Shown here piece by piece: positions 5,599 through 43,300 of a stretch of DNA of 64,000 bases. Below the pieces are notes generated by a model. It was not told where the DNA came from, made no database searches, and worked only from the letters and a program-made list of their open reading frames with translations. This DNA is from Fimicolochytrium jonesii (taxonomy: Eukaryota), in NCBI RefSeq assembly GCF_025526975.1, contig NW_026515687.1, forward strand, positions 248,001 through 312,000, read 5' to 3'. Made by a program: the position numbers and the translations under genes. Positions within the stretch are counted from its first letter, which is position 1. The number at the start of each line of letters is the position of its first letter.

Positions 5599-8500
5599 AT
5601 GGCTCTGACAGAGGTCGAGCACGGTCGCCAAAAGGCCTTCGCTCAGGTACCCCCGCCCTCCCCACCCCACCCCCGCCATCGTCTTCCAGCTTGCTCACTG
5701 AACGTCCTCACTCAAGCTCAGCGCCCTGCTCTCCTCTCCCTCCTTTCACGTCTAGCTGAAACCCCTGTGCGTTCGCATTCTGCAACCCGCTGTCTTTACA
5801 ACAATACGGCGCGATGAAACAAATCCCCTCATCTCCTTGTCAAAACAGCTGAAGAGCATAGGGGCATCCGATAACGGCTCACAGATCCTCGAAGCCGTGT
5901 TCGACTACGTCTGCTTTCCCTTGATGCAATTATTCAAGTATCCGTCACCTTCGACAATCGCTGTAGAAGGCGCTCTGGACTGCATACTATGTCTGTTACA
6001 GAACACACGCGAGGATTTCATGCCTCTGGCATTATATAGGGACCTGCTGGTCGCACTGCCATACCTGATATCCCGCGGGCGTATTGGAAAATCAGCAAAG
6101 GAAGCAGAAACAACACCTGAGGAACTTAAACAGCTGGGCGTTCAGTGCCTCGCCCAGATGCTGAGACGTGTGACCGTACCGACCGATGCCATGGACGCCA
6201 AATTTCTGGCCGATGCTGCGGAAACCAGTACCACAAAATACCTCTGCAAACCCGAGTATCAGCCAACACTGGCGCATGTAGTGGTCGTGCTTGTGGATAT
6301 CATCGACAAGGAACGCCACACCGATTTGCGATTAGCTGCGCTCGCGGTCATATCGGAGCTGGTGAAGAAGGTCTACGATGCAGATCATGTCGCCCAATTC
6401 CTGCCCGGAGTGAGCTCTACGCTAGTGAAGGTCTGCCTTCGAGACGAGAAACAATCGCATCGAATAATAGTCGCATCGCTCGCGGCATTTGCAGACATCA
6501 TCAGACACACCATGAACAATGAAGATTGCAGGGATCTGATTCCGAGGAAACAGATCGGGTGGACAGATTTGGTATCGATCGCTGAGAAAACGAGCGAGCT
6601 ACCACTGAAAGAAGAGGGCGCAGTGGCATTCGCAATGCCATCACCACCTCAACGCGGTATCACAACCAAACGGGATATAGCCTGGTTCAACGCCTCCTCC
6701 ACCCGTCTCACCACCCTCATCACCAATCTCTTCACAATCCGGCACCACGATCACTATAAAGTCCGCCAAGCATTTATCACCCTGTCCGCAGACATCATCA
6801 CCCATTCCGGCCAATCCCTCGCCACTTCCATCCCCATCCTCGTCGAAACCTTAGTCGGCTACGTCAACGACACCGTCCCGCAAGTCTCAAACGAAGCAAA
6901 ACACAAACTCGACACAGCAGCCAGCACCCTTTACCACCAATCCACGCTCGTCACGATGCTCAAGCGCAATTTCTACAGCATGCTCGAGTCCCTGCCCCGC
7001 CTGATCATGCAGGCGGACGACAGGAAGAAGTTGGAGGCGCTGAATATAGTCAATGGATACGTGGTGCTGTTGAAGACGGAAATACGGCCGTCGTTGAATG
7101 CGGCGATCCACAGGTGGTCGATTGGGGTGTTGAGGGTTGCAACTATGGAGACGGCGGATGTGAGGTTGGTGGAGGATCGGGGGAAGGGGTATGAGCTTGA
7201 TCGATTGGCGGCGGGTGATGAATCACCAGCCTCCGAAACTGGCGCATCCACACAGCTGAAAGCCAGGGCGGAATCTCTACACTTTCCACGCAAACATTTC
7301 CTCTACTTCCGCGACGACCGCGTCGAAGCCGCCCTTTCACAGATGTGCCGTCTCATAGGTCGGTACGGCGACATGGCCTTTCTCGCATCCCATTTCCTCA
7401 ACCATATCAAGAGCGAAGGGATTGAAGATTTTCAGGCACAGGCCACCTTCGTGTTGAATGAGATGCTACTCGGAGCCGCGGGATCAGGGATCGATCAAAT
7501 GTCATCAGAGGACATTGGCAACATTGGCAAACACGCTTCGCAAGCAATCAAGTCAATCGCGAAATCGGTAACCCAAGACCTCCTCCAGTGCTCCACCTGG
7601 ACCCACCCCACCAACCTCACCAACCAAACCTTCCGCCAAACTCTCACCTCCACCTCCACCTCCACCCCCACCCACCAAGGCAGCATAACCCACTTCAACA
7701 CCACAATCCTCAAACAAACGCTCCTCCTCGAATCCCTCGCCACCACCTCCCACATCCTCGGCCCGGACATGCAGGTCCTGCTCATGGACACCCTCTACAC
7801 CCTCCTCTCCAAAATCGGCGACTCCAACCGCGTCGTTAGCCATACCGCCATGACCGCCCTCCACTCCATCGCACTATCCCAATCCTACCCACGCACACCA
7901 CCCTACACACACATACCCAACGGCGCGGTGATTGAACTGATACTGGATAACATCGACTACATCGTCAATGCGGTCTCGAGGCATCTACGGTATTTGTCAA
8001 CCAACCCGGACGCGCCTGTCGTGTTACGAGCCGCGATCAGGACGGCTGGGGTGGGGATCGTGCCCTATATGGCGGACTCGGTAGAGGAGGTGCTGGATGC
8101 GGTGGATGCGTGGTATTTGAGGAGCGAGGGGATGGTTCAGGCGCTGGTGGGGGTTTTGGACGCGTTGGTGGAGGTTATGGATGATGGGGGTGTGGATGTT
8201 GTTGGGGAGAGTGATGAGCAGAGGGATGTAGGGACGGGGTTGAAGGGGTTGGATGCTGCGAGGGAGAGCGTGAGCGACAACCCGGAGTTCAAGGGGTGCT
8301 CACGGGAGATGATTGAGTTCTATCTGGAATTCGCACCATCCGCGGAATCGAAACCGGGGAATAGTGATGATACCGACGAACCCCTCACCCGCGCCGCCGC
8401 CGCCGAAAAGTTCTTCAAAGACCGCGCAGAGGGTCTTAACCCCTTCACCGGCGAATCCACCACCCCCCCCTCGCAAAATCCGCCCCGACCTCCCCACCCA

Positions 8501-9361
8501 CCCCCCGCAACCCCCTCGGACCCCACCCCGCCACCCCTCCCACCCCACCAACAGCTAACCCTCCTCATCCTCCCCAAACTGCCCCCCCTGCTAACCCACC
8601 CCTCCCCCACCCTGCGCCACGCGGCCCTCACCCTCCTCCAACGCTCCCTCCGCATCCTCCGCCCAACAACCCACCTCAACACCACCATCCACACCTTCTG
8701 GCCCATCGTCGTCAAACGAATGAGCGACACCGAACACTGGGTCGCGACCGAGGCGATGCGGTGCGTGGGGCTCATAGCCGCGCTCGCCGGCGGGTTCGTA
8801 GCCAAACGCGTCGGCGAGGATATCGTGCCGCGGTACGCGAAGATGATGGGGGCGTCAGAAGCCGTCGGCGGGCAACACAACAACAACCCCACCGCCGCAC
8901 ACCGCCGACACGAGGGGACCACGCACTCCCCCCGGCACAGGCTGCACCTCACGGCGCTGCGGACGGTCAGGTCGCTGGTCCCGCACGTCGCGCTGCCGGC
9001 GTCCGCGATCCGCACCCTCGTCGACGCGACACTCCCCTTCCTCAACGCCACGGCGTACCACGCGGAGGTTGTGCACGCCGCCACCGCGTTGCTGACGACG
9101 CTGGCAAGCGATCCCGCCGCCGCGGATGCCGTGTACTTGCCCCTGTGCGCCTGCTTGGGGGCGAGAGGTGTCCGGCTTTGCGGAGGGCAGCGTGAGCACG
9201 CGGTGCCCGGGTGGATGGTGGAGAAGTGGAGGGCCAAAGGCGGCTGCGAGGCGTTTTTGGAGGCGGGGGTGCAGGTGTTGCGCGCTGTGGATGGCGAGGC
9301 GTGGGAGGTGACGGAGGGGTGGGTCAAGGGTGGGGAGGGGAGGGTGCAGGTCTTTAGGTAG
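5599..9361 (+). CDS. TTI1: TEL2-interacting protein 1 (TTT complex, HEAT repeats)
   Basis: Exon 1 5599-5646, intron 5647-5755, exon 2 5756-9361, giving N-terminal AFAQ|LKPLCV. Family-typical FLPGVSS, NIDYIVNAVS and IHTFWPIVVKRM motifs. Confidence 0.85.
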
Positions 9362-25816: not shown

Positions 25817-27172
25817 CTAGAACAGGAAGAAGGCGGCAACACCGGCAACACCGGCGACGGAGAGACCAACGATGCCAGTGCGCTTGGCAGCAGAGTAAAT
25901 GGGGCCGTCGGTGGGGCCGGGGGCCGGGGAGGAAGTCTCCGTGTAGGTGTAGGTCACTGGCTCGTCAGTGACGGGAGGGAGAGTCGGAACGTCGGTGGGT
26001 TCCGGCACGGGCTCGCTGGTGGGGACGGGATCGGTAGGCTCGGGCGTCTCGGTTGGCTCGTCGTCGGTGCAGGTTTCGGTGGGCTCGGGAACTTCAGTGG
26101 GCTCCGGAGTTTCAGTGGGCTCATCGTCCGTGCAAGTTTCGGTGGGCTCAGGAGTCTCGGTGGGCTCATCATCTGTGCAGGTTTCAGTGGGCTCGGGAAC
26201 ATCGGTAGGCTCAGGAGTCTCAGTAGGCTCTTCGGTAGGTTCAGGGACATCCGTAGGCTCAGGGGTCTCAGTAGGCTCCTCCGTGCACGTTTCAGAGGGC
26301 TCTTCAGTGGGCTCGGGAGTCTCGGTGGGCTCTACGGTAGGCTCAGGGGTCTCGGTGGGCTCGACAGTGGGCTCAGGAGTCTCGGTGGGCTCGACAGTGG
26401 GCTCAGGAGTCTCGGTGGGCTCAACGGTAGGTTCAGGAGTCTCGGTGGGCTCGACCGTAGGCTCAGGGGTCTCGGTAGGCTTGTCCGTGCAGGACGTCGT
26501 GGTGGGGACAACGATGGACGTGCTGGTCGTCTCATCATCCTGGTGCTGCTGGTGATCGCCAGTCTCGGTGGGCTCAGGAGAGTCGGTGGTGGTGGTCTCA
26601 TCATCCTGGTGCTGCTGGTGATCGCCAGTCTCGGTGGGCTCAGGGGAGGCAGTGGTGGTTGTCTCATCATCTTGATGTTGCTGGTGATCGCCAGTCTCCG
26701 TGGGCTCAGGGGAGGCAGTGGTGGTGGTCTCATCATCTTGGTGCTGCTGGTGGTCGCCAGTCTCGGTAGGCTCAGGAGAGTCGGTGGTGGTGGTCTCATC
26801 ATCCTGGTGCTGCTGGTGGTCGCCAGTCTCGGTGGGCTCAGGGTGCGCGACGCTGGTGGTCTCGTCATCCTGGTGCTGCTGGTGGTCGCCAGTCTCGGTG
26901 GGCTCAGGGTGCGCGACACTGGTGGTCTCGTCATCCTGGTGCTGCTGGTGATCGCCATCCTGCTGCTGCTGATGGTCATCGTCCTGACCAGGCTCGGGTC
27001 CGTCGGTCTGTTGGGGAGCGTCGTACGTGGTGGTAGGAGCATCACCGGCATAGCGACGCACGACGGCAACGCCGTTGCCAGCTTCGGCTTCGAACCGGTA
27101 AGGGGCGGCCGCGACGCTGCTCAACAGCATCACGGAGCCGACGAAGGCACCCACGGACTTGATTGCGACCAT
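25817..27172 (-). CDS. Secreted, probably GPI-anchored Thr/Glu/Pro-rich repeat surface protein
   Basis: Hydrophobic signal peptide, internal repeats, and C-terminal SAAKRT plus hydrophobic tail typical of a GPI signal. Confidence 0.8.
   Translation of the reverse strand: MVAIKSVGAFVGSVMLLSSVAAAPYRFEAEAGNGVAVVRRYAGDAPTTTYDAPQQTDGPEPGQDDDHQQQQDGDHQQHQDDETTSVAHPEPTETGDHQQHQDDETTSVAHPEPTETGDHQQHQDDETTTTDSPEPTETGDHQQHQDDETTTTASPEPTETGDHQQHQDDETTTTASPEPTETGDHQQHQDDETTTTDSPEPTETGDHQQHQDDETTSTSIVVPTTTSCTDKPTETPEPTVEPTETPEPTVEPTETPEPTVEPTETPEPTVEPTETPEPTVEPTETPEPTEEPSETCTEEPTETPEPTDVPEPTEEPTETPEPTDVPEPTETCTDDEPTETPEPTETCTDDEPTETPEPTEVPEPTETCTDDEPTETPEPTDPVPTSEPVPEPTDVPTLPPVTDEPVTYTYTETSSPAPGPTDGPIYSAAKRTGIVGLSVAGVAGVAAFFLF
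26020..26957 (-). repeat. Coding tandem repeats: 7 x ~66 bp (GDHQQHQDDETT....PEPTET) and multiple ~30-bp PTETPEPTVE units
   Basis: Seen directly in DNA and translation. Confidence 0.9.
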
Positions 27173-34000: not shown

Positions 34001-35262
34001 TCAAGCCTACCCTCACAACGTGGAACACGATGCTGTCAGCATATGCCCGTATCAGCGATGTCAAGTCGGTCGATCGATTACTCGACGAGATGAAAACTGC
34101 TGGAGTTGAAGCAGATCAGACAACCTGGGAGGCGCTTTGGAAAGGAAACGCGACTTCGGGCAATATAAAGGAAATGCATCGTTACCTTTCCAAACTTGTC
34201 GGATCAGAACCCGGATACCCCCGACTCCAACGCGATGCGCGCTTTCCGACGCTCGTACTTCCCTTGTACAATCGCGTGCTCGATGCGCATGCTGCGAAGG
34301 GAGATGTTGCTGGAGTGGAGACCTGGTTCGCACTACTCCGCTCGGCCGATTTGAAGCCTGATATCTATAGTTACAGCCCTTTATTTGAAGTTTACGCCAG
34401 AGCGGGGGACTTTGCGAAAGTGGAGGAGGTTAAGCAAAAGGCATCGATGGAGGACATCCGACTTGACGCCAATGCAGTCAGTAGGGTTGTCAATGCCCTT
34501 CTTGCGGCTGGGCATCTTGACTTCGCCAATCGTTTCCTGGATTCGGCGGCGAAGGACGGGGTGACACTTGATCCGGCCGTCTTCAACCCCTTCATCGCAT
34601 ATTGGCAACGGGTCGACCACAAAAACGTTTTGAGCGTTGTAGAACAAATGCGCGCGAAAGGCGTCGAGCCAAACGTCGCAACCTATACGCAGTTGATCAA
34701 CGCATTAGCTCACTCGAATCGACACGAAGAAGGATGGGACATCTGGCGCTCCATGGTTGGCCAGAAAGAGCAGATTTTCCACAAAGGATGGGGCGTCTGG
34801 GCGACTGCGCTTGGCGAACAACCCATCAGCGCACACGTCGCGGCTTTGCAGATACGGCGGACGCCTATGGACGACCTGGCCTTACACTCAGGCTCGCTGC
34901 TGTCGATCCTTCTCGATCTTTGCGGATTTGCGGGCTGGGTTGACCGGGCAGATGTGCTGTGGAGTCGGGTTTCCATGTCATCTCGCAAGCTTGAAGAGAA
35001 TCATCTTGCGAGTTACGTCGAATGCCTGTTGCGTAATGGACAGCATGCCCGAGCGATCGAACTGGTCACCCGCGAAACCGGCGTACCACCGGCGATGCCC
35101 ACTCCTGGCCACAAGACTTATGGAACATTGTTGGGCATGCTGCAATCACAGGGGTTGATAGGGGAAAGAGAGGCTTTACTGTCGCATTTACGAGCAAAGC
35201 ACGGGGAGTGGCTTCTGCGCCGCATAGACCTGAAATACCCCGGTGTAGTAGGTAAAATGTGA
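31072..35262 (+). CDS. Pentatricopeptide-repeat (PPR) protein, probably mitochondrial
   Basis: Long intronless ORF with canonical PPR units (PDIVTYQVLM, NTVLYTILITAAA, PTLTTWNTMLSAYA, PNVATYTQLINALA). Start taken at ATG 31072 (uncertain). Confidence 0.9.
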   Translation: MLLYLCARNIAPRCQRRYHSVHAVPAETENAIAPTTATADDVASSSAALPVEGVASSSAPPEVTAENVASSSAPSEVAAEDAASSSAPSEVIDAIGPLQQDPIKAFRQTLVSAQDLLTCWGAFRKITKLPDLQTQLSQQDLRLFLLRFHEQSLKVLAKAPDSISRKLPDLCRVIATWSHLDPADLVDEYNLAIEIYLNHHQTSDAQRVFGVLEVGGKPNLQTCTLMVRMALYKTDVEAAETWIARINEAEGRVPTEIYVQLLKLHVATDEQKIDPTIAALKSKNISIGWKQLKELGQYALTRRRLKGLVALLPHMMEIEPRATLAILDRAVKLCRLYPDLAGAQTLLDSMQRCGDYGVTPQLQCLTAKLYAAIGEPEQLISFLDQMIDCGNSLTLAEVSAILNMFVRRKLIGYVEPFKTRVMAMGIFFDFPSYTLLLRANASCDMVKEVEDTLDMLSESVQFEQCIHALRMYSKLDDSKSWQRCYNRLGRFGNLIDATTAQDWMKLHQTRGGQFEDWLVTLVDGRALKVTDPSVPQTRENLRRLLAAALKNNDIGQAEFAIRELTRRHVNAAPVTLPAIGALAIRERNRYLLDYCIAQAIHINLGPTDVFRLVSDDVEVSMESTAMLRGFISSLLDRQELRDAVSTYRSTLGPEEDFSTKFKDLLIDVLIEKNLRAATAYLKGRGAKAIGTPEAFIKALTSLSLRCRREDEKALRDFLSQLKDLNVLAPTDVMNRFLKSLVANSKAKEAAKLVKEMRKATDPVVKPDIVTYQVLMRSLAEAKEVELFRGYWSCLRQDGIYPDHALYTSRIALRIRQGEVNSLERAIRDLHDAQNELGPFPKQTYGMLIKALLDAGNLDRARMILDKMTRANVLPNEFIYGLFLSYHLKHEQYSAMFSLEQEQRAAGLPFNTVLYTILITAAARQKDVARAHFLYREMKAAGIEPDVQVMTAVMAAFAANKNIEGMMDVYEDMRKIGVKPTLTTWNTMLSAYARISDVKSVDRLLDEMKTAGVEADQTTWEALWKGNATSGNIKEMHRYLSKLVGSEPGYPRLQRDARFPTLVLPLYNRVLDAHAAKGDVAGVETWFALLRSADLKPDIYSYSPLFEVYARAGDFAKVEEVKQKASMEDIRLDANAVSRVVNALLAAGHLDFANRFLDSAAKDGVTLDPAVFNPFIAYWQRVDHKNVLSVVEQMRAKGVEPNVATYTQLINALAHSNRHEEGWDIWRSMVGQKEQIFHKGWGVWATALGEQPISAHVAALQIRRTPMDDLALHSGSLLSILLDLCGFAGWVDRADVLWSRVSMSSRKLEENHLASYVECLLRNGQHARAIELVTRETGVPPAMPTPGHKTYGTLLGMLQSQGLIGEREALLSHLRAKHGEWLLRRIDLKYPGVVGKM

Positions 35263-35341
35263 TCGCGATGCTTACTTCTGTGATGCGAGGGCGTAATGGT
35301 GTCACATAGACTTCTATGCAGAAAAATAAGATTACTATGTA

Positions 35342-35496
35342 TAGTACGGAATAATCATGTACGTCGCAAAATGAAATAAGTGAAATAAAGCCCTATCTCT
35401 ACAAGTTGCCATCATCGGCGATGCCTCCGGCAGAGGTACAATGACGTGGATGGCAGATAACCACCACGGAAAATGGGATGGGGTGAAGACTCTAGA
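35342..35496 (-). ncRNA. Candidate Fanzor omegaRNA scaffold
   Basis: Directly 3' of the Fanzor stop, where omegaRNAs are normally encoded. Nested inverted repeats: tatct 35394-98 with agata 35455-59, tgccatc 35407-13 with gatggca 35449-55, inner tgcc-tcc-ggca 35422-32. Confidence 0.35.
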
Positions 35497-36424
35497 CTAC
35501 CGGTTACGGGAGAATGCGTCTGGTCTGCGGCCATCAATGCCAAACACCACCGAACGCACAATCCAGAGGAAATTCTTGGTGCTTAGGACGTCCCGATTGT
35601 GCACTTTCATCCGTAGTCATAGTGGTTGTCTTCTTCCAGGAATCTCAAATGGTGTCCAGTCTTGGTTGATACATTCGGGGTTGGCGCAACCCACCAATTC
35701 ATGGACAAATTCCATTCTTCCCTTTCTAGCTTGCCACGGCCGAGATGACAGCCGCTGTCGGATGTTTTTCCTCACACGCCCGTGGCAGTCTGGGCACACG
35801 GAAGACGTTCGATACTCATCTAGCAAGTAGCATGGAATGCTGTTTCTTGCAAAGAGTGTGCGGAATCTGATTTCCATGATGAGTTGGCATATTATAATAC
35901 ATAAAAAACAATGATGGCCACTCACCCCTTGGTCTTTGATGACTCCTGAAAGCGCATGGTCTTTCCAGCGTCGCTCCAATCACCCAAGATGGCCGCAAAA
36001 TGCTTTCCATACAGGCGTCGCATGTTCTTGATGAGCTTGCTCTCAGACTTTTGCCGCAGTGAGAACGCCTTGAATCTGCGAGCCACATGAATCTCATCCT
36101 GGTAAAACTCATCCAGGGCGGGATCTGGGATATGGATGTCAGCCCATGTATTACCAAAGTTGAAAATCAAAGTTGAAGTGGAACATCATACCCGCATGTT
36201 CGTAATCCACGATGAACGCTGAGAACGCCTCGATGTTCATGCTCTTGTGCGATGGAATATGTGATTCCATCTCAGCGATGCCGGCATTGATCTTTCGCTC
36301 TCTCATGTCTCTTTGAAAGTACCGAGACTTTGTCTCGACCGCCCGTTGATTGGATGTGTATCTGATATGGGGTGGTGCATTGTGAGGACGCTGCAACGGA
36401 ATGTCGCCGCAACGGGGATGGCAG

Positions 36425-36633
36425 GAGACAGGGGGACTGGCGGGCGGAGACGGGGGGCTGGCGGGTGGAGACCGGGGGGCTGGCTGGTGGAGATGGGGGG
36501 CTGGCGGGTGGAGACGGGGGGCTGGCGGGCGGAGACGGGGGGCTGGCGGGCGGAGACGGGGGGCTGGCGGGCAGAGACGGGGGCTGGCGGGCAGAGACGG
36601 GGGGCTGGCGGGCAGAGACGGGGGGGGGGGGGG
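36425..36633. repeat. GC-rich ~21-bp minisatellite (ggcggagacggggggctggcg, about 9-10 copies) ending in a poly-G run, inside Fanzor intron 4
   Basis: Seen directly. Confidence 0.9.
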
Positions 36634-36989
36634 TAGCGGGGACAGCAGGGCAGTAGTAATCAACTGAAACGTACCGAAATGGACCGCTCCTTTTTGATGT
36701 CTCGACAGAACAAGAGGTCACGCTTGCCCGGATCAATGCAGACGATGTTTGGAGCCTCCCTTAGTTTGGCGATGTGGTCCTCAAAATACAGCTGCTTGAC
36801 TTCTTCCTGCATTTGGGCTTTGCTGCGCTTCCGAGCGCGATGGCCGTACTTGAGCCCTGGCTTCTTGAGGTAGATGGTAGCGGAATACCCGTTTGTGCTG
36901 ATTGACCCATCAAATTTGAGACCAAGCTTCTCTCGATGTTTGAAGACCTTGTCCTATAATGCGTCATTCAGCAAGGTGATTGAAATAAG

Positions 36990-37523
36990 AGCCGCACCCT
37001 CATCAACCCGCACTCGCGCCTCCGCACCGTCCGCACACCCACCCACGCCATCCCCGCCGTCGTCCGCGGCCTGCACCGCTCCTGGTCCTACAAATGCGCC
37101 CGCAAATCCTACACCGCCGTCGGCGTCCACCGCATCCCCGACTCCCCCACCGCCCGATGCAACGGCGTCCTGATCCCCCTGTCCGACCCCAACACCGAGC
37201 TCCGGATGCTCAACGAGCGCAAGAAGGACTACGTCTGCGGAACGGTCAGAGTGGAGGACATCAAGATCCTCCACTTCAACACCCCGCCATCTCCACCCAC
37301 CATCTCAAACCCGTTTGAAACCACAACCACATCCCCCGCCGCGCCCGTCGTCGTGTGGGTGTACGAGCTCCCGCCCCCGTTGTCCCGCACAAGCGCGTGC
37401 ACGCGACCGGCGGCCCCGCACACACCAACCCCATGCACACCGATCCCGCAATCCTACATCGACTGCATCCTCACCGGCTTTCTCGCCATCCACCCAACCT
37501 TTGCGCGCCTCTTCATCAAAGGA
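36990..37523 (+). pseudogene. Gamma-glutamylcyclotransferase-like gene fragment nested antisense in Fanzor intron 3
   Basis: Open frame TLINPHSRLRT..AIPAVVRGLHRSWS..TAVGV..CNGVL..LNERKKDY..VWVY..PIPQSYIDCILTG..FARLFI. Lacks the N-terminal YGS start and the C-terminus. Confidence 0.65.
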
Positions 37524-38997
37524 TACAGACTTACATTCACATTGAGAAACTGCCCCCACAGCTCCTGCTTGCGTTCATCAGTGAGTTTCCCCATGCGACG
37601 TTGGCCAACATGCAGGATATGAGTGCCTAGGATCAGCGTGTCGATCCGAACAGATGACTGGATTCGAGATTTGCGCAGCGGGATAGCGGAAAACAGGCGC
37701 ATTCCACAGCGCTCATAGAGGCGCGAGAGCTCACAGTAGGCACCTGTGATGAGGCTAGGCAGGTGCAGACCATGATTAGACAAAAGAGGGCACCGCAGGA
37801 GGGGGGGGGGGGTTTCGCGTTATGTTCGGCGCGCGGCGAACACGTCGGCGGCGCTGGTTACGTTGACGCCATGGCGGTGGGCAAGAGCGTCGGTCGCGCC
37901 CTGGGCCCGCTGTGTGCGCACTGGCAGCGTCGTCAAGGCCCCGGGGGGGGGGGGCCGCAGGAGCCCAGCGTGCGGGCGCCCAGCGCCAACAGCGCATCGC
38001 GAACCACGTCGGCCGGGGTCCCGGCGGGCAGCCACTGGGCGTCGGCGTACCGAGCGCCTTGCTCACGTCGCTGCGCAGCCACGCACGAGTTGGGGGGGGG
38101 GGGTAAATATACAGGATGCAACTTACCTACATATGGCATTGCGTCCACTGCAAGGCTGTACGCAAGGGGCTCATCCTGGGGAGGAAACAGAGCCCATAAC
38201 TCGTCCAGGACGGTCCGCTCAAGTCGTGTGAGGCGCTCAAGCTCCTCTTCAGTTGGGTACTCTTCAAACGTCGCGTACTTTGTAAATTGACGGACACGAC
38301 GATAATAGTGTCGCCGCTGCGCTCTCCGGAGATGCCGTTCGACTTGCTTTAAACCAAGCCTCCCATTGATGTAGCGCAGAAACATTTGCATGAAATGCTC
38401 TTGTACATTGACTTTGAGGTTTGTGAAGATGCTGGTAGCCGTGTACGCTGCGGTCTGTTGGCAATTCCGCATGCGGATGGGGGCGAATCCGTGAACATCA
38501 CAGTAGTCTTGAACCCATGGACGCAACTCTTGCGCGATGACCGGATTGCCATTGTAGCCTGGATTGTTGAGCAGCTCAAACACCACACTGATGTGCTTGT
38601 CGGTGATGTCCGGGAAATCGTGTAGAGGATGATCAGCTGTGGTGGGCAGACGCAGTAAGTCAGGGCGTTGTTTCATGGGAAAGATACAGCGCAGTGTACC
38701 TCAAAAACTCACCAAGGTAGTACTTGAGAAAAAAGCTGGTGTGGCGCGCAAGGATGTGAACATTGCCGATGAATGCCGTCAGGCGCTCCCTTTGCTCCCT
38801 TTGAGCTTGATTATGGATGATTCGGTGAAGCGAAACCTTCGTGCTGGCATGCGTCTGCGGGCGGGGTCGCTGAACTGGTGGTGGAGGCGGGGGTTCAAGC
38901 ACCAGGGATCCACCCGGTGTGCTGGGAAAACGGAAAGGGATGGGAGCGGGGAGGTTCAACGGACGCTGCAGACCCCTGTCCGCGGGTGAGAGCCCTC

Positions 38998-39028
<31 letters not shown>

Positions 39029-39984
39029 CCCGTCTTCATCGCCGGAACTCTCGCCAACCATGTCTGCAATTGCTTGGGGCAAGTGGCGTTGGACAGACGG
39101 TGGGAACTCGAATCGTTGGGTTTGCAAAGGTGTCTGCACAGTTGGCAGACGTATGGGCAACCGCGGGGTAACCGGAGCAACCTTCCTCCTCTTCCGCCGT
39201 GGTGTGGTTGCTCCAGTAAAGATGCCACACCACGAGTGCCCCTGGAGCGCCTGGTGTGATGACATGTTGGCTGTGCTATGCCTTTTGCGTGCCGCGTGCC
39301 TGCTAAAGATGAGGTGTATGCAGGTGATTGCCGTGATGGCTGTGTTAGTGCTGTGGTAATGAAGCTGAGAACGGTGAGGAATTGCGGTTGTTACCTGGTG
39401 GTGGTTGAAGCTGAAGAGGGGATGCTTACTGCTCACAATAATTGCGTTGGGAGGGAAGGGGGCTGAAGGAGTAGAGTGCCAAGAAAGGGGGTTGGGAAGG
39501 AAGGTTGGTACATGTAATTGGGAGTGAGGATCCCCACGTTTTTTACACGCGTGTAAAGGATGGGATGTGGAATTGCCTCGAGGTGATTGCCGTGATAGCC
39601 GGATATTGGGTACATTTTGAAGGGCGGATGGTCTGGCCAGATGGGCTGGGCTAGGAAAGGGAAAGGAACTATATGTGCTGCGATTCCATATATAAGAAAC
39701 GCTCGGGTACGCAAGGGAAACCTGCCAACATTCAACATTCAAAGAAGCTGTTCGATTTCTGTATCATAGACCTATTGCTATTGCTATGTACGTGTTCGGC
39801 GGCAGAGTGACTATGACAGCGAAGCGATTGGGAAGGCGAGAGAGCGTACCGCGAGACTGCCCCTAGCGTTTTTACCGAGGCATCCACGACTACGACGGCG
39901 AGGCGATGGAGGAAGTTGATAGCGTACTGCGAGTGCCCAGATCCAGGCTACACCTCAAGCGATTGGGAAGTCGAGAGAACGACT

Positions 39985-40093
39985 CGCGAGCCCGGCGACT
40001 ATTCGTCGCTGGACTCGAGCGATCGTGACTTGAAGGTGACTTGAAGAGCGAACCGCGAGTCCGGCGACTATTCCTCGCTGGACTCAAGCGATC
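39985..40093. repeat. Two 40-bp direct repeats with 3 mismatches, in a locally repetitive stretch (39820-40100)
   Basis: cgcgagcccggcgactattcgtcgctggactcgagcgatc (39985-40024) versus cgcgagtccggcgactattcctcgctggactcaagcgatc (40054-40093). Confidence 0.85.
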
Positions 40094-40338
40094 ACGGAAG
40101 TTGAGAGCGGAACGTTCATGAGATCAGAATGCGGAGCAATGGCGACGGCGACTGCGACTGCGACGGCAATTGAATTCGATCTGCAGTCTGAGAGGGAGTG
40201 TTGTAAAACAACCTGTTTCAGCCACAGCTTCCTTTTATAGTGCCGAACCCTTTTTCCTCTCTGCAGTTAGAAAGCTTGCGTGTGCAGACCGTCCGATCGA
40301 ATGTCTATAAAGCGATAAACTATTTACAAAGCCGATCT

Positions 40339-43300
40339 TCACTTCTTCGAAGAAAATTTCAGCAAGTTTCGAAGCTTGTTTTTAAGACGGTCCTGCTTGT
40401 TCAGGCCTTTGTAGCTCCCGCTTTTCGCAGGCGAAGGTGCACTCTTTTCCTCCTTTTCCGTCTCAAGGGCTTTTGCTACGGTGTCGGAACTTGCCACTTC
40501 TGATACCACGACTGTGGTGTTCGTTGTAAGCCTATCATCTTCCTTGTCGCCTGCAATCGAAACCGTTTCACGCGTCTCCGTTGAGACAGACGGTGGCTCT
40601 GCTTGCGTTTCGCGCTCAGTAGCCTTGCTGGTGGCGTCGGCTACGTCCAATGGAATTTGGGCCTCCACATTTGCTGCAGAGATTCTTCCCTCTGACCCAT
40701 CGACATTCGGCGTCACTTCGGAATCGGATGCTACCTCGGGGTCAGCCGCATCTTGCAGCGTCGGAGCTCCATCTGAAACCAGACTGTTCCCGCCCGTGGA
40801 CACTTCGGTAGCATCATCGGTCTTGTCCGAAGCACTTTCTGATCCGGCCGTTTGCATGATCTCCTCCTGCTGCTGATCCTCTGTGCCCATGCTGGTCCGC
40901 GAGCTGGCCGAGGATTCCGACGACATATCAGAAGTTCCCGTGCTCGTCTCGGTAACTTCCGAGGACGCGACTGCAGTCTCCTCGGTGGACAAGCTGGTTC
41001 GCGAGCTGGCCGAGGATTCCGACGACATATCAGAAGTTCCCGTGCTTGCCTCGGTACCTTCCAAGGACGCAACTGAAATCTCCTTCGTGGACAAGAGGTG
41101 TGCGCTCGAGGCCGCTAATGCCGTATCAAAGACAGCGGCAAGCCCATCATCCGAGCTCTTTAGCGCTGTTTCGCTGATGTGCGGGCCTCCTGTTATCCAC
41201 TCTTCAGCATCGGCCTTTGAGTGATCCCCGCCTACGGCCTCTAATTGTTTCGCTGAGTTGTTGCCTCCGCTGGAAGAGGTTTTTTCGTAGCGCAGCGTTT
41301 CCCACCAAGGCACCTGATTATTATCATCAGGGAGGGGTTTTGGAGTTATTCCATTGTTGATTTGGTCTTCGCTTTGGGTGACAGAGGCCCCGGCTTCATC
41401 TGCGCTCCCAATTCCCTCCCCAGCTGGGTCCGCAACCACCCCTGTCTCCTTTTTAGCGCGTCTGCGTTCGCGACTCATAGCGCGTCTGCGTTCGCGGGCT
41501 GTACCTTTCGTTGCATTCTCAGCAGATGTTGAAGCGGTCGTTTCCTCCGGGACAGCGTCCGTTTCCCGGTCAGCAATGCTGTTACCTGCATCCGTCGTTT
41601 TTCCGCTTCCGTTTTCTCCCCGAGATACATCTTGAGCAGTGACAATGGTGGACTCCAACAAAGCTCCTGACTCAATTGGTTGGGGCGGGAAAGACAAAGT
41701 GACGTGCGCTGGGTCGAATCTCATATACCCGGACCGGATGGCGTGGCTCAATATAACAGCGATTAAAAGCGATCTGTCGGGCTTGGCAAATTCGCCGAGA
41801 TTGGCGGCGAGTCGTGACCTCACGTGTTGCTCCCACTTCGTTCGGTCTAACGGACCGTCGACACGTATCATCTCGATGATCTTCGATAGTTTCGCTTCGC
41901 TGACGTCAAGCAGATGCCTGGGAAGCGCCGAATCGGGCAATGTCAGAAAGAACAACTTCGACTCGTGATCGTTCACGCGGCGGAGATAGCCGTAATCCTC
42001 CAGCTTGGTCATGGTCAGGGATGCCAATGTGGCTGCCAGCTGTTTATCCACGTTACGTAAGGCCATGAAGGAATTTTGGATGATCGACCGCAAGGCCCTC
42101 CGTGATTTTCCAAATTGCGCAATGGAAGCATAGCTCTTTAGGACCGCATCATGAGAAAGTTCCTCCAGCAGTTCCTTTGTCGCAGCTGGCACCTTTACAA
42201 CTTTCGATTTGAAATGCAGAGCTCCTATATCGACTTTCTTGTGTTGTGACTCCGGATTGCTGTCCCCAATTTGAGAAGAGCCTGCAGCCAAATCCGATCT
42301 GTAAGACGATGCGTCGATTTTGACAACGGAAATGAGGAGACTCTCTTACCTTTAGGGGCGTTGTTGGCTGTAGCAGACTTGGTCGCCTCCTTCGCCTTCG
42401 CTCGCAACGCCGCTTTCGCTTCCGTGGCCTTCAACTTTATCGCTTTCGCTTCCGACTCCGCCTTCATTTCGGTCTTCCTTTCTGCAACCGCCTTCGCATT
42501 TGCTGCGCTTCTTTCCGCCTCCCACGCCAATTTAGCTGCCTTTCTTTGTTTCTTAGAGAGTGCCCCCAAGGTTTTGAGATATTCGTCTACACTCTCGGCT
42601 ACTGGGGACTCGTTCGGTTCTTTCTTCTCCCCAGAAGTGGGAAGAGAATCAGGTGGAGCAGAATTTCCGTTGGCTTCATCAATTGCCTTCCCTTTGGCAA
42701 TTGCCACTTCTTTTTCCTTCGCCTCCCACGCCATTCGAAATGCCTTTCTTTCTTTCTTAGTGAGGACCCCCAGGGTTTTGAGATAATCGTCTACATTCTC
42801 CTTTACTGGGAACTCGTTCGTATCGTTCTTCTTGTCAGAAGTGGAAACAGGTTCAGATGGCACAGAGTCCCCGCATGCCGCATCAGTTACCGGCTTTTCG
42901 ATTACATCTGATTCAACCGGTGAGGAGTTTTCGGAAATCTCGGACGTTGTAGATGGGGACCCGATTGGTTCAGACGGCGGCGTTCCAGGTAAAGCCTCCG
43001 ATTGCTGGTAACTGATTGCTTGAATCGGCGGTGACTTTGCTGAACTCTCCGGCTTTTGGGGGGATTCGTCCGGCGACTTCCCTACCTTGAGCATTTCGTA
43101 AAACCTCTCAGCCGACTTCGCTGAGCTCTCCGGCTTTTCGTAAAACGTCCCAGGCGATTTTGTTGCCGGCGGTTGATTGGAAATCGCAGGCGACTTCGCT
43201 GAGGTCTCCGGCTTCTGTTGAAGACTTCCAAGCGCCTTCGTGCTTTTTGTCGGCGATACCGTTGGCTCTGGGCCAGTTTTTCTCGAGGTACTGCTAGACG

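Follow-up and report, generated by a model that had tools for sequence, protein, structure and literature searches.

The window analysed here is a 64,000-nt stretch of the Fimicolochytrium jonesii genome and is eukaryotic and gene-dense. Its minus strand carries a Fanzor element, flanked by a PPR gene (end 35262) and an unrelated ORF (end 40339), and the gene within it (35497-39265) is a Spizellomyces-type Fanzor1 whose seven exons are separated by six GT-AG introns of 76, 383, 581, 313, 67 and 59 nt, counted from intron 1 to intron 6. The gene model was built with the help of F. jonesii sister protein models, which are automated predictions rather than transcripts. When stretches of exons 2 to 7 were compared with a structure database, SpuFz1 (8gkh_P) ranked first for each of the six (E 1.2e-8 to 6.9e-26), and the Spu-type homology spans REC, WED, RuvC and the zinc ribbon. 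Exon 1 (38713-39265) starts at the ATG used in the sister models; exon 2 (38127-38636) and exon 3 (37535-37743) match SpuFz1 with E values of 6.9e-26 and 5.9e-13. Exon 4 (36675-36953) contains the first RuvC aspartate motif, IDPG, exon 5 spans 36192-36361, and exon 6 (35926-36124) matches SpuFz1 at 6e-17. Exon 7 (35497-35866) contributes DEYRT and HNRD, which complete the catalytic D, E, D set, as well as CPDC and CxNPxC of the C4 zinc ribbon.

The gene belongs to a family of at least 28 annotated copies distributed over many contigs of F. jonesii. A search with exon 2 recovered 17 proteins from 663 candidates, all from this species and 16 of them at 75-92% identity, and cluster look-ups added 11 further sisters. 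Several sister models retain all three catalytic motifs (P0172, for example, with 761 aa). Fanzor relatives were also sought outside the species, and none turned up among 108 stretches from viral contigs or 130 from metagenome contigs.

The copy in the window is broken. One extra base near 36683 in exon 4 shifts the frame relative to the sisters, R-P/L-F-R-Y-T being the reading in 17 of the 19 models listed for this junction, and a premature TGA in exon 7 (35619-35617) comes ahead of the last catalytic aspartate motif, so that the reading frame is not intact; by-eye reading suggests that an in-frame alternative acceptor near 36391 could bypass the frameshift. The closest sister is 93% identical. 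Over 695 well-defined alignment columns (those with fewer than five rows or less than 70% agreement were dropped) there are 26 departures from the majority reading of 27 sisters, 15 of them private to this copy. Its exons are mildly CpG-depleted (0.88 vs 0.96-1.13 in 10 host ORFs). No terminal inverted repeats of the expected ~30 nt were detected between 35200-35500 and 39260-40500, where the best pairings were 14/20 and 19/30. Fanzor elements are not known to have a transposase in this lineage.

Several features lie around the gene. Directly after the Fanzor stop, a stretch on the minus strand (35380-35500) is rich in hairpins, as judged without a shuffle control, and occupies the site where SpuFz1 has its omega-RNA; it gave no Rfam match. 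Upstream of the start, 39822-40093 holds two imperfect direct-repeat pairs of 34 and 49 nt (85-88%), one of them palindromic in character, which may fall outside the left end of the element. Elsewhere in the window, the minus strand carries extended coding repeats in tandem (26031-27029), whose units measure 30 and 66 nt and which likely belong to a surface protein.

Intron 3 and the parent of its insert

Intron 3 (37534-36954, minus strand) is 581 nt long, in phase 0, with intact GTAAGT and TAG ends. Splicing it out fuses FLNVN with DKVF, colinear with SpuFz1; of the 19 sister models that extend across this junction, 18 read it alike. A preliminary description had placed ~535 bp of C-rich, coding-like DNA between these splice ends, and we confirm this arrangement, with the insert itself measuring 519 nt (36999-37517). 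It is preceded on the Fanzor strand by a 17-nt 5' stub with the GTAAGT donor (37518-37534) and followed by a 45-nt 3' stub with the TAG acceptor (36954-36998); within the 3' stub the CTRAY branch consensus is absent, CTGAA and ATGAC being the nearest approaches. On the Fanzor strand the insert brings a cryptic branch site (CTGAC) and acceptor (CAG) at 37249-37235 and a cryptic donor (GTGAGG) at 37474, signals that could disturb splicing of intron 3.

The insert has a reading frame open on the plus strand, antisense to Fanzor as the preliminary description had it, and a composition of 46% C and 66% GC, with C in 115 of 173 third positions. C-rich third positions are a trait of the host: four of 10 window ORFs reach 54-70% over 173 codons, compared with 66% in the insert. 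Abrupt C-rich or G-rich coding stretches of 65-72% GC also occur in the host genes at 790-2511, 7560-7900 and 8400-9360, and these resemble the insert in style. The insert contains neither an intron nor poly(A), and runs of five or more A or T are absent.

The supposition that a host gene had been captured, and that its frame was GGCT-like, held up once the parent was identified. In a HMMER search of 1.84 billion proteins, F. jonesii XP_052928548.1 (P0019; EV422DRAFT_516375, 393 aa) was the best of 144 matches with an E value of 1.8e-101, the next best reaching 56%; at 393 aa it lay outside the 95-305 aa size limit of the first protein search. That first search with the insert returned just one Obelidium protein among 113 candidates, so that within its size range no annotated duplicate of the cargo came up. 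Compared at the protein level, the insert corresponds to residues 166-338 of the parent with 160 of 173 residues identical and no gaps (160/175 in the BLAST alignment). The parent's 90% cluster has one member, and orthologues occur in Spizellomyces, Geranomyces, Rhizophlyctis and other chytrids. A predicted structure of the parent (pLDDT mostly >90 over the domain) matches ChaC2, AIG2-like and GGCT chains with E values of 3e-6 to 1e-4, its GGCT-like signal in the Atlas is 0.91-0.93, and its match to Pfam GGACT (E 0.0022) falls below the curated cut-off; on this modeled basis the parent has a GGCT (cyclotransferase) fold. The parent lies on a contig of 1,794,109 nt and the window on one of 573,532 nt, so the copy was made in trans. 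A sister Fanzor, P0004, on the parent's contig was considered as a sign of an adjacent donor and rejected, as it is 48 accession numbers away.

The insert is cut at both ends, as had been noted: it begins just past the YLFGYGS motif and ends ahead of the TxGW motif. Its frame has no start ahead of the homology and lacks YGS and the C-terminal 55 residues. These truncations, together with the loss of the conserved residues D237, E240 and R245 described below, argue against an intact plus-strand gene nested within the intron. A chimeric assembly is countered by the 13 private changes of the insert and their CpG bias, which rule out a mis-join of the parent. Both readings are barely credible, and we reject them.

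Decay of the captured fragment

Among the 13 amino-acid differences between insert and parent, seven are single CpG transitions in the direction of the insert, one is the reverse and five are of other kinds. CpG targets changed 16-fold more often than other sites (p 8e-6). Four of the 13 changes (D237N, E240K, R245C and C326F) affect residues that 70% or more of 14 relatives have in common, about as predicted from the share of such positions overall (64/173); conserved sites have therefore not been spared, as expected of a fragment that is decaying. Three of the residues lost, D237, E240 and R245, are invariant or nearly so in 63 relatives, and the insert reads LNERK where the conserved LDxRE is expected. 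E240, nearly invariant in these 63 relatives, is presumably the catalytic glutamate of a GGCT-like enzyme, in keeping with the alignment. Selection on the open frame was considered and rejected: 63-65% of neutral simulations with 13 amino-acid changes (600 runs each, indels left out) were likewise stop-free, and an open frame is thus no sign of selection. The captured fragment is decaying and is neither a gene nor an enzyme.

The insert has diverged from its parent by 7.5%, compared with 2.2-3.7% for the Fanzor exons. The rate of CpG change is higher in the insert than in the exons (p 0.02, on a majority-based exon count that misses CpG sites decayed in many copies), whereas the rate of non-CpG change is no different (p 0.15-0.46). 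This pattern of decay hints at CpG methylation of transposon DNA in F. jonesii. High 6mA has been reported for the species (PMC11258239), and the accessible text of that report gives no 5mC value for it.

Transcription of Fanzor would produce RNA antisense to the parent, and the insert, ~92% identical to the parent as protein, might have been retained as a source of antisense or small RNA regulating that gene. The location of the insert within a spliced intron, the frameshift and premature stop of the copy that carries it, and the accumulation of CpG-type changes, as in silent methylated DNA, all weaken this proposal, and we regard it as very improbable.

Junctions and the route of capture

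The two junctions of the insert share a 7-nt direct repeat, TCATCAA, on the plus strand. The left copy (37000-37006) lies within the parent-like part, and the right copy (37513-37519) comprises 5 parent-like nt and 2 nt of intron. When pairs of points were drawn at random, a match of 7 nt lay no more than 4 nt from both points in 93 of 19,980 pairs from the window and 437 of 17,643 pairs from within the insert, giving a chance of 0.5-2.5% for a comparison in which the empty site is a reconstruction and the parent is compared as protein. Removal of the insert and one TCATCAA leaves a reconstructed intron of 68 nt, comparable with the unexpanded introns of 76, 67 and 59 nt. CATA, the target motif of SpuFz1, which may not apply to this family, was not found near either junction.

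We think it probable that a 519-nt piece of a GGCT-fold gene was copied once into intron 3 by microhomology-guided break repair and has since been decaying without function. A break would have occurred in a short native intron 3 (68 nt if the reconstruction holds), after which a CTCATCAA-like word common to both sites could have let one broken end prime the synthesis of ~0.5 kb from the host gene on another contig. Rejoining at a TCATC word would have left TCATCAA on both sides and both splice ends in place, such that intron 3 could still be removed. Methylation of the fragment along with the rest of the transposon would probably have followed, and deamination at CpG sites would have worn it down; whatever antisense RNA arose would be short-lived, a by-product of an intron in a dead copy. 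The preliminary description had offered two routes, templated break repair and capture of the Pack-MULE or Helitron kind. The first agrees with the repeat at the junctions and with an empty intron of 68 nt as reconstructed. The second has no support, since neither terminal inverted repeats nor another annotated copy of the cargo came to light. The Fanzor element showed no transposase and no long inverted repeats of the MULE type, and a scan of 10 frames gave no RepHel family.

The template might instead have been reverse-transcribed host mRNA, patched in as cDNA at a break. Over 173 codons the insert follows the spliced protein with no intron in between, and the donor is on another contig, both of which are compatible with a cDNA. 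On the other side, poly(A) is absent and the insert begins and ends within the coding sequence; in addition, four single-ORF proteins of 286-1445 aa match database entries exactly as encoded in the window, so long single exons do occur in this genome and the parent may have no intron in the captured region. We judge a cDNA template improbable. A GGCT scan of metagenomes yielded 12 loci in 89 stretches at 26-31% identity, too distant for placing the parent's introns.

The 7.5% divergence of the insert, a donor in trans and the enlargement of further introns count against a single repair event at this site. As the insert has diverged further than the exons, an older capture inherited from a source copy is possible, and this leads to a broader alternative, in which capture took place in an active source copy that then spread, introns serving as cargo sites that spare the nuclease frame (a Pack-Fanzor). 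The other introns bear on this. Three of the six (introns 2, 3 and 4) are enlarged, and the exons contain no comparable insert. Introns make up ~17% of the reconstructed gene, and the chance that all three expansions would be intronic is ~0.5%, a value that uses reconstructed lengths and assumes the expansions to be independent and private. Confinement to introns could reflect selection in an active lineage or the fragility of C-runs.

Intron 2 (37744-38126, minus strand; 383 nt) contains ~290 nt of 76% GC that a C12 run bounds on either side and another C12 run interrupts, and this GC-rich piece is possibly a second capture. Comparison of the intron 2 sequence with proteins gave 0 of 302 candidates, the Atlas gave just unnamed bacterial clusters of 40-45 aa, and there was no Pfam family under E 0.1, no Rfam family and no second copy within the window. 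To judge from GC by codon position, it may be part of a coding sequence that runs in the same sense as Fanzor, with a change of frame at the middle C12 run. Intron 4 (36362-36674, minus strand; 313 nt) holds a tandem array of a 21-nt unit (9.6 copies, 92% matches, 36424-36625) beside a C14 run. The sister model P0017 reads into intron 4 and has a different C-rich sequence there.

Spread from a source copy would fit the location of all three expansions in introns, the amplification of the family, which has 28 or more annotated members spread over many contigs, and a divergence of the insert (13/173) that exceeds the private divergence of the exons (15/695). Set against this, no second copy of the cargo occurs among annotated proteins, where unannotated copies would escape, and none of the 27 sister models, annotated models being the ones covered, matches the cores of introns 2, 3 or 4. 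The excess divergence of the insert is also limited to CpG sites, and the C12-C14 runs in introns 2 and 4 could cause fragility without selection. We consider capture in an active source copy unlikely. Similarly unlikely is the general proposition that Fanzor introns act as cargo sites for host pieces (in introns 3 and 2) that are spread genome-wide, perhaps where Fanzor itself cuts DNA under RNA guidance.

If a single microhomology-guided repair event is the correct reading, the locus is a tidy, dated example of a repair-mediated duplication in an early-diverging fungus in which the parent, the junction signature and the CpG decay are all visible. Should sisters share the cargo or hold other pieces in their introns, they would show how Fanzor copies itself and moves host DNA.

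Comparison with known captures and Fanzor elements

Repair-mediated duplications into transposons have been described by Pace et al. 2009 (PMC2671141), and the insert resembles those cases in having a single donor, a length of a few hundred nt, a transposon as its site and no poly(A); the microhomology that marks them is a putative feature here. Some of those duplications carry a short target duplication, and 17 of the 29 distant duplications examined there had the poly(A/T) tracts of retrotransposition. The vertebrate cases lie mostly <5 kb from their donor, whereas here the donor is on another contig. The insert also differs from them in interrupting a spliceosomal intron and in having a fungal Fanzor as its carrier.

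Tan et al. 2021 (PMC8277862) attribute single-copy Pack-TIRs to gap filling that does not depend on transposition. With these the insert shares host sequence within a DNA element, putative microhomology at the breakpoints and little loss of the element, but the terminal inverted repeats and target duplication of Pack-TIRs (PMC8277862) were not found for this Fanzor. A truncated piece of a host gene in a mobile element is likewise found in Pack-MULEs (PMC8277862) and gene-capturing Helitrons. Pack-MULEs differ in their long terminal inverted repeats, which were not found here, and their target duplication is 9-bp (PMC8277862); Helitron ends are given as TC...CTRR with a 3' hairpin (PMC3627910).

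Among Fanzor elements, a search of open-access literature gave no report of a host-gene fragment in an intron; the supplementary locus tables of PMC10432273, outside that search, may list such cargo. The capture belongs to a known class of accident, one for which we found no reported instance in a Fanzor in the open-access literature. Saito et al. (PMC10432273) describe 11 Spu loci whose repeats enclose additional genes, and those named in the accessible text are Gypsy/Ty3 genes, which differ from a host-gene fragment in an intron.

Introns in Fanzor genes are generally known (PMC10530073). The F. jonesii family resembles SPu-1/SpuFz1 of Spizellomyces punctatus, the nearest relative with a solved structure, in being multi-copy and in its RuvC and zinc-ribbon motifs (PMC3627910, PMC10432273). 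SPu-1 is described as one intronless ORF with inverted repeats of 30-33 nt (PMC3627910), whereas genes of the F. jonesii family contain six introns and extend at the N-terminus by a proline-rich stretch, and in the present copy repeats were not detected. A six-intron family of at least 28 copies, set beside the intronless SPu-1, offers a useful case of intron gain.
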